Sequence record: MT446392.1 | Source: Escherichia virus TH15 | Direction: 5' to 3' (one strand) | Length of the DNA stretch: 64,000 nt | Shown here: in pieces, positions 3,483 to 28,750 of the stretch | Numbering within the stretch: the first letter of the stretch is position 1 | How the letters are laid out: each line of letters begins with the position of its first letter | Notes under the pieces: generated by a model | Seen by the model: only the letters and a program-made list of their open reading frames with translations | Database searches by the model: none | What the model was told of the DNA's origin: nothing | Made by a program: the position numbers and the translations under genes

Positions 3483-4004
3483 TTAATCCCTCGCGTATAC
3501 GTATGAACGCAATTTATCTGCACATCGGCTCCAGTTACCGACGATAGTTTTTGTGTAAACTTTTGTCATTGTCTTTCTTACTGGGGCCGGAGGTGGGTCT
3601 GTCTCGTTGCCTGCCCGACTATTACTACCACCAGAGTTCCCTGTGTCTCCTCCAGAGCTCTCTTCTTGAAAGTCATAGGTTAGGGTTACTGTGTATGAAA
3701 AGACCTTCTGGAGGCTCGCTGGGGCCCTCCAGAGATACAATTGAGTGCTCTTATCCACAGGAAGTTCTTCCCATGAAGCAGCAGTTTTGAATTCATCATC
3801 AAGCCGATATTTAAGTGCATCATCTGCAAATCCGAACACGGATTCATAAACACCATAAAGATGATTGCCCTCAACATTAACGCCAGGGGTGGCCTCATAT
3901 TCAGTTATATTTATTTCGACTAATGTTTCGTTTGTTTCTAATTGAGCTGTAAACGTAACATCGATTGAGGCTCCTTCCATGGAGTCTCCTAGGTCAGTGC
4001 TCAT
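3483..4004 (-). CDS. 5.1: hypothetical protein, gp5.1-like by position
   Basis: ORF 3483..4064; start placed at internal Met 21 (4004) because the longer start overlaps gene 5; Ser/Gly/Pro-rich C-terminus. Confidence 0.4.
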   Translation of the reverse strand: MSTDLGDSMEGASIDVTFTAQLETNETLVEINITEYEATPGVNVEGNHLYGVYESVFGFADDALKYRLDDEFKTAASWEELPVDKSTQLYLWRAPASLQKVFSYTVTLTYDFQEESSGGDTGNSGGSNSRAGNETDPPPAPVRKTMTKVYTKTIVGNWSRCADKLRSYVYARD

Positions 4005-4014
4005 TGGGGTTATA

Positions 4015-5757
4015 TTAGCCAATGTCAATCCTCGAACCATCAATAGTATATTGTCCAGATGCAATAGAACTCATTGAAGCCATAGTCTCGGACCAAGCAC
4101 CTGCACAAGTCCAAGATACAGTACCATTTACAGTCCAGTTTAAATTACCATTAGTCGTGCGAGTTTCATTACCTTCTACTAAGGTAGTCGCATCACCCTT
4201 AACAGTAACATCAGCATTTCCTTCAACAATAACAGTAACGTTGCCTTTAACTCTGAGTGTTCCATTACCTTCTACAGTTTTCTCTTCGTTACCACGAATA
4301 TGGATGGTTTCGTTTCCATCGGTCTGACGACGAACGTTAGCCATATTGTAATAGGTTTCATCACCGCCAACGTTGACTTTATTATTACCACCGACATAAG
4401 TACTCGAATCGCCCTGGGTCATATAATAACCATCGGCTACCGTCTTCGAAGTCTTACGACCATCTGGTGCAACTTCCTCGTAGGAGCCAGTCGGGTGAAT
4501 CAGTCGATAACGTTCTTGCCCTGGAGTGTTATCGAATTCCTGAATATGTCCGCCTTCGGTTTGCATTGTCTGCACATAAGGATATTCGCCCTTGTAACTT
4601 GATTCTGGCTCTTTAAATAGAATCCTCGTATCTTCTGGAGTCCACGGGTCGGCCGGGTCAGAATTTGTAGGGGCCGCAAAGGTTTGAATCATCCTATATG
4701 AACGCCCTTTAAATTCCATTTCTTTAGGGGCCATTATACCATATGATTCCATATTACCGGTAAGGATAATCATTGATACCCTTGATGCACGCCCTTTAGT
4801 TTGGTTAAACCATACTGAATTACGAGCTTCCTCAAATGCCTTTTTATAATCGCCTATTAACATTGCACTAAGCATTCCACGGAATTTAGCAAGTCCACCT
4901 AATCCCATTTGGAAAGCCATGTTTTCAAGAGCCATTTGTCTCGAACGGTTTTCTTTATTGTAAACCGGACCTACAACACTATGCCTACCTATATCACTTT
5001 GTACTTTCTTAAGGTCTTCCTGGAATAATTTGGAAGCCTCGTCCATTGATATTGCGCCAGGGTTACCTTTAACTTCACGGCCTATTTGATTAGATAATAT
5101 TTTGTTTATCTGATTCATATCTCTAATAGGTTGTGGTGTAATAAGGTGGCCAATCCCGACAGTCGGATAACCTTCGGTGTCCCAATATACTTTCAGACGA
5201 AGCCCCTCATCACGGTGAAGCATATTTTCAATTGTGAAATTAGGGTTATCGTCTGGCTTAACCTGACTTAAATCAAGACCATCAGGGTTAATACCCAAAT
5301 CAAGGTTTGAATCCTGGATTACGTTTGAAGTGGCATCATAACCAACTTCACCCCCTCGGTTAAGCGCTGCAGCATCATTACCGACATAAAGTGGGTATTG
5401 TCCTGTGGGGTCAGAGAAACCTTCGTTAGGATTTGCTTTTTGCCTTGAGGCTGAACCGTATGTACCAATGACAAGACCGTTGAGCTTCCACTTGTCTAAA
5501 AAGTGACCATACACCTGAGTCCCTGGTACCATACCAGTCATGGCAGTTTGAATTCCAGAAACCGACGCAGATGATGTTGGCATCAGCACAGACATCCATG
5601 GTAGGTCTTCAGTTCTGATACCTTTTACAGGCCCTTGTGATTTCTCATATGGATGCATACCCCATACACGAACACGGACTCTACCTTGCTGAAGCGGGTC
5701 CATTCGGTCTTCAACCACACCGACGAACCAGCTTACACTATCTGACATATTAATCAT
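4015..5757 (-). CDS. 5: baseplate hub / tail lysozyme gp5
   Basis: 580 aa; central lysozyme-like segment (GYPTVGIGHLI, cf. T4 lysozyme [10 protein letters not shown]) and C-terminal VxGxxTxxVEGN beta-helix repeats. Confidence 0.85.
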   Translation of the reverse strand: MINMSDSVSWFVGVVEDRMDPLQQGRVRVRVWGMHPYEKSQGPVKGIRTEDLPWMSVLMPTSSASVSGIQTAMTGMVPGTQVYGHFLDKWKLNGLVIGTYGSASRQKANPNEGFSDPTGQYPLYVGNDAAALNRGGEVGYDATSNVIQDSNLDLGINPDGLDLSQVKPDDNPNFTIENMLHRDEGLRLKVYWDTEGYPTVGIGHLITPQPIRDMNQINKILSNQIGREVKGNPGAISMDEASKLFQEDLKKVQSDIGRHSVVGPVYNKENRSRQMALENMAFQMGLGGLAKFRGMLSAMLIGDYKKAFEEARNSVWFNQTKGRASRVSMIILTGNMESYGIMAPKEMEFKGRSYRMIQTFAAPTNSDPADPWTPEDTRILFKEPESSYKGEYPYVQTMQTEGGHIQEFDNTPGQERYRLIHPTGSYEEVAPDGRKTSKTVADGYYMTQGDSSTYVGGNNKVNVGGDETYYNMANVRRQTDGNETIHIRGNEEKTVEGNGTLRVKGNVTVIVEGNADVTVKGDATTLVEGNETRTTNGNLNWTVNGTVSWTCAGAWSETMASMSSIASGQYTIDGSRIDIG

Positions 5758-12533: not shown

Positions 12534-12607
12534 GGCCCTGTAGCTGGACGGTCAAGCGAGCGACTCATAATCGCTGGATGGTGGTTCGATTCCACCCAGG
12601 GCCACCA
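12534..12607 (+). tRNA. tRNA with anticodon CAU (Met, or Ile if lysidine-modified)
   Basis: Hand-folded cloverleaf: acceptor GGCCCTG/CAGGGCC, anticodon stem AGCGA/TCGCT with loop CTCATAA, T-arm GGTGG-TTCGATT-CCACC, encoded CCA. Confidence 0.7.
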
Positions 12608-12741: not shown

Positions 12742-12817
12742 CGAGGCATAGCTCAGAAGGAAGAGCAAGGACCTTCTAAGTCCTAGGTCGTAGGTTCGAT
12801 TCCTACTGTCTCGACCA
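12742..12817 (+). tRNA. tRNA-Arg (anticodon UCU)
   Basis: Hand-folded cloverleaf: acceptor CGAGGCA/TGTCTCG (one G-U), D-arm GCTC/GAGC with GG loop, anticodon loop CTTCTAA, T-arm GTAGG-TTCGATT-CCTAC, encoded CCA. Confidence 0.75.
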
Positions 12818-26429: not shown

Positions 26430-26972
26430 ATGAAAAAAGTAATAGCCACTTTACTATTGACAGTTAGTATGTCTGCCCATAGCGTAGAGCCTACTTTCAG
26501 TAATGAACAGATGGAAAATCTTCAATATGCGTATGCATTTGGAGAACAGTTCCAGAAAAATGGTAAGTACAAAGAAAATCCGCACCAACATAATGGTTTG
26601 GGATATATCATGGCTGGATTAACCTGGCAGGAAAGTTCTGCCGGGGTTAATACAGGATTAAATAAAGATAAGCATCATGCATATGGTATATTCCAAAATT
26701 ATCTTCCAACCGTGCGCGAGCGCGTAAAACAGGTTGGGTGGACAATGACAGATAAAGAAATAATCAAGATGATAAGCAAGAGAGAGAACAGTGCACGCTG
26801 GGCTTATATTGAGCTTTCATACTGGTTGAACATTCACAAGGGGGACATAAGAAAAACACTATCATCATATAACGCAGGGTGGAATGTGAAAGCTGGAAAT
26901 ACGTATGCTTCACAGGTCCTAGAAAAAGCTAACTACTTAAAATCACGAGGCCTATTAAAAACGGTGGATTAA
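26430..26972 (+). CDS. secreted protein, possible lytic transglycosylase (SLT-like)
   Basis: 180 aa; N-terminal signal peptide; QESSAG ... AYGIFQ resembles the SLT catalytic ES ... G-h-M-Q pattern. Confidence 0.4.
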   Translation: MKKVIATLLLTVSMSAHSVEPTFSNEQMENLQYAYAFGEQFQKNGKYKENPHQHNGLGYIMAGLTWQESSAGVNTGLNKDKHHAYGIFQNYLPTVRERVKQVGWTMTDKEIIKMISKRENSARWAYIELSYWLNIHKGDIRKTLSSYNAGWNVKAGNTYASQVLEKANYLKSRGLLKTVD

Positions 26973-27332
26973 ATGGTAAGAGTCATAACTTTAGCCATAG
27001 GGTTAGTATTCAGCACGGGAGGAATAGCTTCAGTACAGAGCGATGATAATAATAGCATCATAGAATATGCAACGAGGACGGCCAAAGATTATTGTGCATC
27101 AAGCAATGTGGATTGTGTAATCCAGTTTAGTGCCAAACTCACTGCTGCATATAAAGACGGTCAAAATGATGTTGAACACACTCTTATGAAAAAGAGTATT
27201 TTATCCAACAAATATGAAAAGAAACTATTTGAAATGGATTGTATTCTGTCGAGTGCCAAATATAAAGCGGCCTGCACCAGTATGGTTGACAGGTTAGTCG
27301 ATTCCTATAACAGAGGATTGAACTCTAAATGA
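26973..27332 (+). CDS. secreted Cys-containing protein
   Basis: 119 aa; N-terminal signal-like hydrophobic segment. Confidence 0.45.
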   Translation: MVRVITLAIGLVFSTGGIASVQSDDNNSIIEYATRTAKDYCASSNVDCVIQFSAKLTAAYKDGQNDVEHTLMKKSILSNKYEKKLFEMDCILSSAKYKAACTSMVDRLVDSYNRGLNSK

Positions 27333-27793
27333 TTGTTAACTATATTAAGGGCGATATTGTCGCCCTTTTTCTCGAAGGAAACATCATAGCTCATGGCTGT
27401 AATTGTTTCCATACAATGGGTTCAGGCGTTGCTGGCCAACTGGCAAAGGCTTACCCAAAAATTTTAGAAATGGATAAGACATCAACTGAATACGGTTCCC
27501 GAGAAAAACTCGGTGATATGTCTATCGTTTTTAAACATAAACCAACTGGATTTGGTATGTGCTATAACCTTTATACCCAGTATGAACCGGGTCCAAATCT
27601 GGATTATGGTGCTTTAGTAAATTGCATGATAGAATTAAATCGACAAGCAGAATCCCTTTTGTTCAAGCCTGTGATTTATATTCCCAGGATTGGATGTGGT
27701 ATTGCAGGTGGTGATTGGGATAAGGTTTCCCGGTTAATTGATATGTTTACTCCTGACATTGATTTGATAGTGGTGGATTATGAGTCAAACTAG
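27329..27793 (+). CDS. macrodomain protein (ADP-ribose binding/processing fold)
   Basis: 154 aa; GDIV...NIIAHGCNC...GSGVAGQLA... and C-terminal IPRIGCGIAGGDW match the conserved macrodomain motif layout. Confidence 0.5.
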   Translation: MIVNYIKGDIVALFLEGNIIAHGCNCFHTMGSGVAGQLAKAYPKILEMDKTSTEYGSREKLGDMSIVFKHKPTGFGMCYNLYTQYEPGPNLDYGALVNCMIELNRQAESLLFKPVIYIPRIGCGIAGGDWDKVSRLIDMFTPDIDLIVVDYESN

Positions 27794-27986
27794 TATTCTT
27801 AAAAATGCTCACTGTGAAAAGTGTAAATGGCCAGTTGTTTTTGCTTTATGCAACGATGAAATGATATGTGATTTTGATTATTGGTGCTATTGTTCTAATA
27901 AAGGGTGTGTGAATCATGCAGGCGCCGGTTTCTATTCCGGGTTTCAACCGTATCCAGACTTTGTAAAACAAGGTGAACCGAAATGA
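27780..27986 (+). CDS. Cys-rich small protein (putative zinc-binding)
   Basis: 68 aa with CxxC ... CxxxxxxC ... CxC ... C pattern. Confidence 0.45.
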   Translation: MSQTSILKNAHCEKCKWPVVFALCNDEMICDFDYWCYCSNKGCVNHAGAGFYSGFQPYPDFVKQGEPK

Positions 27987-28168
27987 GTTTAAGTATTAGT
28001 CAGAAAAGTAGATTGTTTGAGCTTATCCATGAGCTTTTGGACGAGCATACGGAAGCGAACGCTTTTTATGATGAATACGGCCCGATAGATGCCGAACATC
28101 AGGAAGAATTTGCTAATCGGTTTGATGAGAAAGAAAACGAATTAATTGCTTATGTGAATACTCTTTAA
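27983..28168 (+). CDS. hypothetical acidic small protein
   Basis: 61-aa ORF, translationally coupled. Confidence 0.4.
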   Translation: MSLSISQKSRLFELIHELLDEHTEANAFYDEYGPIDAEHQEEFANRFDEKENELIAYVNTL

Positions 28169-28177
28169 GAAGGTGAT

Positions 28178-28750
28178 ATGGCGAGTTTAATTTATCATTA
28201 CGCAGCAATGAATGCAGGCAAAACAGCTTCATTGCTGACTGCAGCTTATTCCTATAAAGAGCGTGGAATGAGTGTGCTTTTGCTAAAACCTGTTATTGAT
28301 AATCGGGACTCGGAATCTGAAATTAAATCACGTATTGGTATTAGCCAGGAAGCAAACCTGGTAACGGCCGACATGAACCTGTTTGAATTCTATAAATGGG
28401 CCGAGTCTCAAAAGGATATCCATTGTGTCCTGGTTGATGAAGCTCAATTTTTGTTACCAGAGCAAATTGACCAGTTAGCACGAGTGGTTGATAATTACAA
28501 TATCCCCGTTATGTGTTACGGGTTAAGAACAGATTTTCGGGGTCAATTATTTCCCGGTTCAGCCAGACTTCTGGCTATTTCGGATAAACTGGTTGAATTA
28601 AAGGGCGTCTGCCATTGCGGCCGGAAAGCAACCATGACCGCTCGAGTAATCGACGGTGCTGCTGTAAAGGACGGCGAGCAAGTGTTAGTCGGTGGGAATG
28701 AATCGTACGTATCTTTATGCAGGAAACATTGGCTCGAATTGACAAGCTGA
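28178..28750 (+). CDS. tk: thymidine kinase
   Basis: 190 aa; P-loop NAGKTASL, VDEAQF and C-terminal CxCG...C zinc motif typical of type II thymidine kinase. Confidence 0.85.
   Translation: MASLIYHYAAMNAGKTASLLTAAYSYKERGMSVLLLKPVIDNRDSESEIKSRIGISQEANLVTADMNLFEFYKWAESQKDIHCVLVDEAQFLLPEQIDQLARVVDNYNIPVMCYGLRTDFRGQLFPGSARLLAISDKLVELKGVCHCGRKATMTARVIDGAAVKDGEQVLVGGNESYVSLCRKHWLELTS

Follow-up and report, generated by a model that had tools for sequence, protein, structure and literature searches.

The stretch of DNA analysed here, a window of 64,000 nucleotides from Escherichia virus TH15 (sequence record MT446392.1), contains between the orthologs of the T4 genes vs and tk.3 an open reading frame (ORF) of 154 codons for a small macrodomain protein. 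The position of this gene, the fold and active site predicted for its product, and the part that it may play against DarTG2, a bacterial defence in which ADP-ribose put on viral DNA stops its replication, are the subject of the following sections.

The macrodomain gene and its T4 counterpart

The ORF is a real gene and not a chance reading frame. In particular, the ORF and all the motifs on which a sequence-only reading of the window had based the assignment of a macrodomain are found, namely KGDIV (residues 7-11), NIIAHGCNC (18-26), GSGVAGQLA (31-39) and IPRIGCGIAGGDW (118-130). The protein matches the Pfam family Macro (PF01661) with an E value of 1.4e-8 and 35.1 bits over profile positions 2-117 of 118, the gathering cutoff of this family being 22 bits, and the PHROG 335 profile with an E value of 5e-70. 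Moreover, 788 homologs were retrieved from a large protein collection and tblastn detects relatives in 2782 of 50,697 phage records, the family being present in phages of Escherichia, Klebsiella, Salmonella, Pseudomonas, Vibrio, Acinetobacter and Aeromonas. A recent horizontal acquisition of the gene was considered and rejected, since its composition shows no sign of such an event (GC content of 0.387 versus 0.396 for the window).

The closest characterized relative is T4 Tk.4, a protein of 155 amino acids, with 59% identity and 75% positives over 152 amino acids (E value of 8e-71). In T4 the tk.4 gene is located between vs and tk.3 and upstream of tk, as in the window phage, and the gene order regB, vs.1, vs, tk.4, tk.3, tk.2, tk, followed by the rI region, is common to both phages; the T4-like order is confirmed by the annotation of the relative UPEC01 and by the fitting Pfam matches of the neighbouring genes (REGB_T4, Phage_zn_bind, DUF7438, TK, Antiholin and DUF5856). 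This identity and synteny mark the window ORF as the ortholog of the T4 gene tk.4, recently named adfM. The sequence-only reading had known of no macrodomain gene at this position of T4; tk.4 is precisely that gene, and the novelty implied for the window gene is consequently gone. In other words, the observation holds but is not new, as the sequence is in GenBank and the T4 ortholog has been given a name and a phenotype. At the nucleotide level, the surrounding 2.4 kb are 98% identical to the Escherichia phages TH40, TH22, UPEC01 and vB_EcoM_VR20; TH40 encodes an identical macrodomain protein, and UPEC01 (Straboviridae, Tevenvirinae, genus Gaprivervirus) labels its own copy as macro-domain protein.

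The gene is tightly packed between its neighbours, in a style typical of phage operons (Table 1). Specifically, the stop codon of vs and the start codon of the macrodomain gene share an ATGA sequence, which suggests translational coupling inside one operon, and vs and tk.4 of T4 likewise overlap by 4 bases. A scan for promoters and terminators between 24 and 30 kb of the window returned 19 promoter-like sites, with 17 expected from shuffled sequences; being so near to this expectation, the scan is uninformative on the transcription start of the macrodomain gene. The gene is probably expressed from the prereplicative regB-to-tk gene string, with a timing borrowed from the T4 map.

Table 1. Positions in the window of the macrodomain gene, of its predicted functional elements and of other features
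Feature	Position	Strand	Remarks
Macrodomain gene, T4 tk.4/adfM ortholog	27329-27793	+	ATG-to-TAG ORF, 154 amino acids plus TAG stop
ATGA overlap, TGA stop of vs and ATG of the macrodomain gene	27329-27332	+	Read from the sequence
Asp9 in KGD	27353-27355	+	Nearly invariant; aligns with KGD of TARG1, BT1257 and SCO6735
H22-G23-C24-N25, NAAN-equivalent	27392-27403	+	H22, G23 and N25 invariant in 60 homologs
Loop 1, M30-G31-S32-G33-V34-A35-G36, Gly-rich, predicted diphosphate-binding	27416-27436	+	From the alignment
Gln84 (CAG), position of the catalytic Lys	27578-27580	+	MAFFT and hhalign
Loop 2, P119-R-I-G-C-G-I-A-G-G-D-W130, predicted second phosphate-/distal-ribose-binding	27683-27718	+	From the alignment
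14-base overlap, end of the macrodomain gene and start of the tk.3 ortholog	27780-27793	+	ORF coordinates
tk.3 ortholog, Cys-rich, 68 amino acids	27780-27986	+	PF23895 Phage_zn_bind, E value of 1.3e-28
tk.2 ortholog	27983-28168	+	DUF7438; weak sub-threshold match to Unstab_antitox, 'addiction module component' (E value of 0.006)
vs ortholog (valyl-tRNA synthetase modifier)	26973-27332	+	Hydrophobic signal-peptide-like start MVRVITLAIGLVFSTGGIASV
vs.1 ortholog	26430-26972	+	Signal-peptide-like N-terminus MKKVIATLLLTVSMSAHS
tRNA Met-CAT	12534-12607	+	ARAGORN
tRNA Arg-TCT	12742-12817	+	ARAGORN

Predicted fold, macrodomain class and active site

The structure of the protein was modelled with AlphaFold2 using a 60-sequence family alignment as input, and the resulting model (predicted local distance difference test, pLDDT, of 95.5; predicted template modelling score, pTM, of 0.90) shows a three-layer alpha/beta/alpha fold with a central mixed beta-sheet. 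The highest structural-neighbour scores are those of BT1257 from Bacteroides thetaiotaomicron (2afc, 18.4), the Mycobacterium tuberculosis DarG macrodomain (5m3i, 17.5), yeast Poa1p (6lfq, 17.4), human TARG1 (2lgr, 16.8) and Thermosipho DarTG (7omu, 16.8), whereas coronavirus, alphavirus, PARP, MacroD and PARG macrodomains score 13.8 or less. Foldseek gives the same set of neighbours (TARG1 with an E value of 3e-10), and a sequence search of the PDB finds Poa1p and BT1257 (both 9e-10), SCO6735 from Streptomyces coelicolor (1e-7), M. tuberculosis DarG (2e-6) and TARG1 (2e-3). The nearest structures are in summary TARG1, DarG, Poa1p, BT1257/SCO6735 and ALC1, and not MacroD, PARG or viral Mac1; the model accordingly assigns the protein to the ALC1-like/TARG1 class, as a stand-alone macrodomain. 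The macrodomain assignment of the sequence-only reading is upheld by the Pfam match above threshold, the model and the structural neighbours alike, and the check that it had proposed, structure prediction, returned a macrodomain and not a different fold. In addition, it had correctly matched the motifs to the elements of the fold, that is, the Asp contacting adenine, the H-x-x-N equivalent of NAAN and the phosphate-binding loops 1 and 2.

To describe the active site, family members were aligned by MAFFT together with BT1257, SCO6735, both DarG macrodomains, gp104 of phage PhiKZ and TARG1, and conservation within the family was measured over 60 homologs, down to about 40% identity. The TARG1 sequence used agrees with the fragment of this protein found in a PDB alignment. 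The sequences of BT1257, SCO6735 and DarG were taken from PDB alignments and that of PhiKZ gp104 from the methods of PMC13309987. As judged from this alignment, the residues of the predicted ADP-ribose pocket (D9, G31/G33 and G122/G124) are conserved or invariant. The N-terminal Asp of macrodomains, at the position of D9, contacts the adenine of ADP-ribose. In the segment equivalent to NAAN, H22 aligns with H23 of Poa1p and H32 of TARG1, G23 with Val25 of SCO6735, and N25 with the Asn of DarG and with N23 of PhiKZ gp104, a phage protein likewise called AdfM, whose activity is lowered by the N23A substitution (PMC13309987). G31 and G33 of loop 1 are invariant in every aligned ALC1-like macrodomain, while P119, G122, G124 and W130 of loop 2 are invariant in the family; this second loop is near-identical to the PRIGCGLAGGxW segment of BT1257 and SCO6735.

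The main departure from TARG1 and DarG concerns the position of the catalytic Lys. Here the window protein has Gln84, contained in the segment NLYTQ and invariant across the 60-sequence family, including T4 Tk.4, which resembles the window protein also in the H-G-C-N segment and in loop 1. The same column is occupied by Lys in TARG1 (K84), Thermus aquaticus DarG (K80), M. tuberculosis DarG and PhiKZ gp104 ('PTK'), and by Gln also in BT1257 and SCO6735 (Gln85). Moreover, Ala126 stands in the column of the second catalytic residue of TARG1, Asp125, so that the Lys84 and Asp125 of TARG1 (OARD1/C6orf130) are replaced by Gln84 and Ala126. Independently of MAFFT, hhalign pairs NLYTQY with NFPTKK of DarG (E value of 7e-12) and with NMIGQH of SCO6735 (E value of 8e-16). 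A pairwise HMMER alignment, in which the 'GQ' of BT1257 is an insertion, was set aside because MAFFT with family members and hhalign agree in equating Q84 with Q85.

SCO6735 and BT1257, which are cellular and not phage proteins, show 26-28% identity to the window protein and, like it, have Gln at the catalytic-Lys position and no Lys/Asp dyad. SCO6735 lacks both TARG1 catalytic residues, yet it removes DarT-made thymidine-ADP-ribose from DNA, being more efficient on this substrate than DarG or TARG1, and it rescues cells from DarT, while the Q85A and Q85E variants are inactive (PMC9411070). The mechanism proposed for this enzyme is that a water molecule held at the backbone of Val25 represents the proton donor and that Gln85 positions the ribose (PMC9411070). 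As the invariant Gln84 matches the essential Gln85 of SCO6735, catalysis by T-even Tk.4/AdfM proteins is probably lysine-independent; Val25 corresponds to the invariant Gly23, a change that a backbone role would tolerate. The replacement of Lys by Gln in the T-even family may be a new detail, and no mention of it appears in the available parts of the two AdfM papers. It suggests SCO6735, and not DarG, as the model for the way in which T-even AdfM works, which represents a modest mechanistic and evolutionary note.

Candidate role against DarTG2 and alternative explanations

Indications about function come from the genetics of T4. In a screen of a T4 transposon library on a DarTG2 host, tk.4 was the single significant hit; T4 becomes sensitive to DarTG2 when the gene is cleanly deleted, and on plain Escherichia coli K-12 the phage can do without tk.4, which is important only in the presence of DarTG2 (10.1101/2025.11.20.689424, bioRxiv, November 2025). 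In the same preprint the gene is renamed adfM, for 'anti-DarT factor macrodomain', a structural likeness to M. tuberculosis DarG is described, and the enzymatic removal of ADP-ribose from DNA is proposed by the authors as a hypothesis. In addition, T4 without adfA and adfN stays resistant to DarTG2, which had led to the prediction of a further factor (PMC11825919). In the light of the sensitivity caused by the tk.4 deletion, the most likely function is the removal of the thymidine ADP-ribose attached by DarT2, and, by analogy, the ortholog of the window would have the same role by hydrolysis of DNA-ADP-ribose. The sequence-only reading had proposed the reversal of a host defence based on ADP-ribosylation, in agreement with this phenotype.

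Specifically, the macrodomain would be expressed from the prereplicative regB-vs.1-vs-tk.4-tk.3-tk.2-tk string and would bind the ADP-ribose put by host DarT2 on thymidine in single-stranded phage DNA. By hydrolysing the base-ribose bond it would then restore replicable DNA and defeat the DarTG2 defence. The reaction would be of the SCO6735 type, with Gln84 positioning the distal ribose, a backbone-held water acting, and no lysine nucleophile. Taken as a whole, the explanation that the window encodes a Gaprivervirus-type T-even ortholog of tk.4/adfM which removes DarT2-made ADP-ribose from DNA is considered likely. The gene, its fold, class, orthology and synteny, and the Gln substitution were obtained in this analysis, while the literature provides the T4 phenotype and the enzymatic properties of SCO6735 and gp104.

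For three reasons the window protein cannot be counted as a DarG: Gln replaces the catalytic Lys of T. aquaticus and M. tuberculosis DarG (PDB 5M31, 5M3E and 5M3I), the C-terminal domain with which DarG binds DarT is missing from its 154 residues, and the immediate neighbours of its gene are vs and tk.3, with no darT adjacent. Unlike DarG, it would consequently work only by erasing the modification. The DarG model NF048014 scores 30.1 bits on the protein, below the cutoff of 250, with only positions 2-138 of 338 matched. The scores of the window protein and T4 Tk.4 lie at only 29-36 bits for both DarG models, NCBIfam and PADLOC, whereas PhiKZ gp104, used as a positive control, obtains 137.8 bits on the NCBIfam model (macrodomain part) and 133 bits on the PADLOC one.

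PhiKZ gp104, the 'AdfM' of chimalliviruses, is a stand-alone phage macrodomain of 162 amino acids that counters DarTG2; in vitro, it removes DarT2-made ADP-ribose from an oligonucleotide (Cell Rep 2026, PMC13309987). It matches M. tuberculosis DarG with an E value of 9e-25 and keeps the Lys of PTK. With the window protein it shares the conserved Asn (N23; N25 here) and an acidic isoelectric point (pI; about 5.05-5.09 for both), while BLASTP aligns the two with 27% identity over only 33 amino acids. As gp104 is of the DarG type with Lys and T-even Tk.4 of the Gln type, the two phage 'AdfM' proteins would belong to different macrodomain lineages within one class; a separate recruitment of the T-even and the chimallivirus AdfM appears to have taken place, and the available parts of the two AdfM papers do not mention it. 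A tentative possibility, which we hold at somewhat less than an even chance, is that T-even Tk.4 is not a captured DarG but an independently recruited Gln-type ALC1-like macrodomain with a short loop, lysine-independent and maybe endowed with wider substrates (other bases, RNA, protein). If true, phages would have reached 'AdfM' at least twice, once with the Gln type and once with the Lys type represented by PhiKZ gp104. AdfB of ICP1 was considered as a further macrodomain relative and rejected, since it is reported to inhibit DarT by binding it directly.

A number of observations weigh against a DNA-directed hydrolase. For the T-even Tk.4 family the evidence is genetic, coming from T4 and from a single preprint, and the window protein is only 59% identical to T4 Tk.4, from which it also differs in loop 2 (GCGIAGGDW here, GAGIGKGNW in T4). 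The catalytic Lys of DarG, TARG1 and PhiKZ AdfM is missing. Even SCO6735 is an imperfect match, since its basic 'mobile loop', which is extended by five residues relative to DarG/TARG1, is absent here: the loop following Gln84 has the TARG1/DarG length, is 5-6 residues shorter than that of SCO6735 and lacks its Lys89 and Lys94. In addition, Lys34 of SCO6735, which together with the mobile loop contributes to the activity on DNA, corresponds to Ser32. The sequence match to yeast Poa1p is about as good as that to the DNA-acting enzymes and, finally, the ALC1 macrodomain also has Gln at the position of Q84.

The ALC1 macrodomain is a reader, or binder, of poly(ADP-ribose) and is not known to act as an enzyme. 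Its Gln, together with the missing catalytic Lys, would fit a non-catalytic binder that shields or sequesters ADP-ribosylated DNA, free ADP-ribose or an ADP-ribose-derived signal. Nevertheless, binding alone would leave the DNA unrepaired, and SCO6735 reaches its high activity with a Gln at this position (PMC9411070); we deem a pure binder very improbable. In terms of charge, the window protein is acidic (pI of 5.1) whereas SCO6735 is basic (9.7). The use of the acidic pI as an argument against a DNA substrate was rejected, since PhiKZ gp104, a proven DNA de-ADP-ribosylase, has a pI of 5.05.

Human TARG1 and yeast Poa1p, 20-25% identical to the window protein, act on Glu/Asp-linked protein ADP-ribose and ADP-ribose-1''-phosphate. 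The labels 'phosphatase' in PHROGs and RefSeq and 'O-acetyl-ADP-ribose deacetylase' in JGI imply a Poa1p-like phosphatase or esterase with a small molecule as its substrate, either ADP-ribose-1''-phosphate or O-acetyl-ADP-ribose. These labels were, however, transferred by homology and never tested, and the sequence match to Poa1p lies mainly in the N-terminal 70 residues. With regard to the positions of Poa1p mutants, H23 corresponds to the conserved H22, S30 to Thr29 and F152 to Ala126, in an alignment that covers only the two ends of Poa1p. Moreover, we know of no source of ADP-ribose-1''-phosphate in T-even infection, and a Poa1p-like activity would leave unexplained the specific DarTG2 phenotype of the T4 ortholog. 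A Poa1p-like enzyme is improbable on these grounds, even if a weak phosphatase activity on ADP-ribose-1''-phosphate, a side reaction of many macrodomains, is possible as a side activity here.

The protein substrates of TARG1 also lead to consider a protein de-ADP-ribosylase, which would reverse or tune the marks placed by the phage enzymes Alt, ModA and ModB, or clear host-placed ADP-ribose from phage proteins. In general, Arg-linked ADP-ribose is cleaved by ARH/DraG-type enzymes, whereas macrodomains of the TARG1 class cleave ester-linked Asp/Glu ADP-ribose. T-even phages do encode ADP-ribosyltransferases (PMC8120803), and TARG1 and SCO6735, of the same structural class as the window protein, hydrolyse protein- as well as DNA-linked ADP-ribose (PMC9411070). 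On the other hand, Alt, ModA and ModB are Arg-specific (PMC8120803), DarG is inactive on proteins (PMC9411070), and the Lys84/Asp125 dyad used by TARG1 on proteins is missing from the window protein. Furthermore, the dispensability of T4 tk.4 on plain E. coli K-12 speaks against a function on proteins, which we deem quite improbable. A regulation of the phage's own Alt/ModA/ModB modifications, the alternative offered by the sequence-only reading, finds no support, because those marks are Arg-linked and the class is not known to act on such bonds.

The target could also be RNA, instead of or besides DNA, with the macrodomain erasing the ADP-ribosylation introduced by CmdT-like or other RNA-targeting toxins. 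Reversible RNA ADP-ribosylation with macrodomain erasers is documented (PMC11833690, PMC13036486 and PMC11618068), and some neighbours of the gene, such as regB and vs, are RNA-related. Nevertheless, the CmdTAC defence stays robust against T-even phages carrying tk.4 (PMC11618068), so that tk.4 evidently does not neutralise CmdTAC. An RNA eraser is accordingly regarded as very improbable.

As a remover of thymidine ADP-ribose from DNA, the window protein would add a case of T-even phages stacking anti-DarT factors, with AdfA and AdfN (a NADAR protein acting on the guanine modification) flanked by a macrodomain for the thymidine modification. In terms of annotation, a better name for the gene would be tk.4/adfM ortholog, macrodomain, putative DNA ADP-ribosylglycohydrolase against DarTG2, the present labels 'phosphatase' and 'hypothetical protein' being less accurate.

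Neighbouring genes and further observations

The orthologs of tk.3 and tk.2 are translationally linked to the macrodomain gene. T4 AdfN requires an unidentified T-even factor for full activity (PMC11825919), and small co-transcribed partners such as tk.3 and tk.2 may for this reason deserve attention. T4 possesses a small extra gene, tk.1, between tk.2 and tk (3856-4044 of the T4 comparison locus), whereas the window phage has no counterpart of it, as tk.2 runs to 28168 and the next gene, tk, begins at 28178.

Upstream of the macrodomain gene, a Pfam scan gave no match for the vs ortholog. Its signal-peptide-like start is odd for a supposed modifier of a cytoplasmic synthetase. In T4, vs is the gene depleted most strongly in minimal medium, according to the HIDEN-SEQ preprint (10.1101/2025.11.20.689424). 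The vs.1 ortholog, with no Pfam match at an E value of 0.01 or below, is labelled as SLT-domain protein in UPEC01 and as lytic transglycosylase in P8. Several product names of UPEC01, the closest relative with an annotation, resemble mis-transfers: 'endoribonuclease' is found on three different small ORFs, 'thymidine kinase' is used twice, and ORFs of the mobD region carry the name 'molybdopterin-guanine dinucleotide biosynthesis protein'.

Many phage relatives of the macrodomain protein are longer, with 186-260 amino acids; examples among the BFVD matches are tk.4 of Acinetobacter phage 133 (245 amino acids) and Gp101 of Erwinia phage vB_Eam-MM7 (260 amino acids). The PHROG 335 profile has 422 positions, with the macrodomain at 54-205. 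Together, the longer relatives and this profile indicate that some lineages fuse the macrodomain to extra uncharacterised parts.

At a distance from the regB-to-tk string, ARAGORN detects only 2 tRNA genes in the 64-kb window. The T4 tRNA cluster comprises eight tRNA genes, and in comparison the cluster appears reduced in this lineage.

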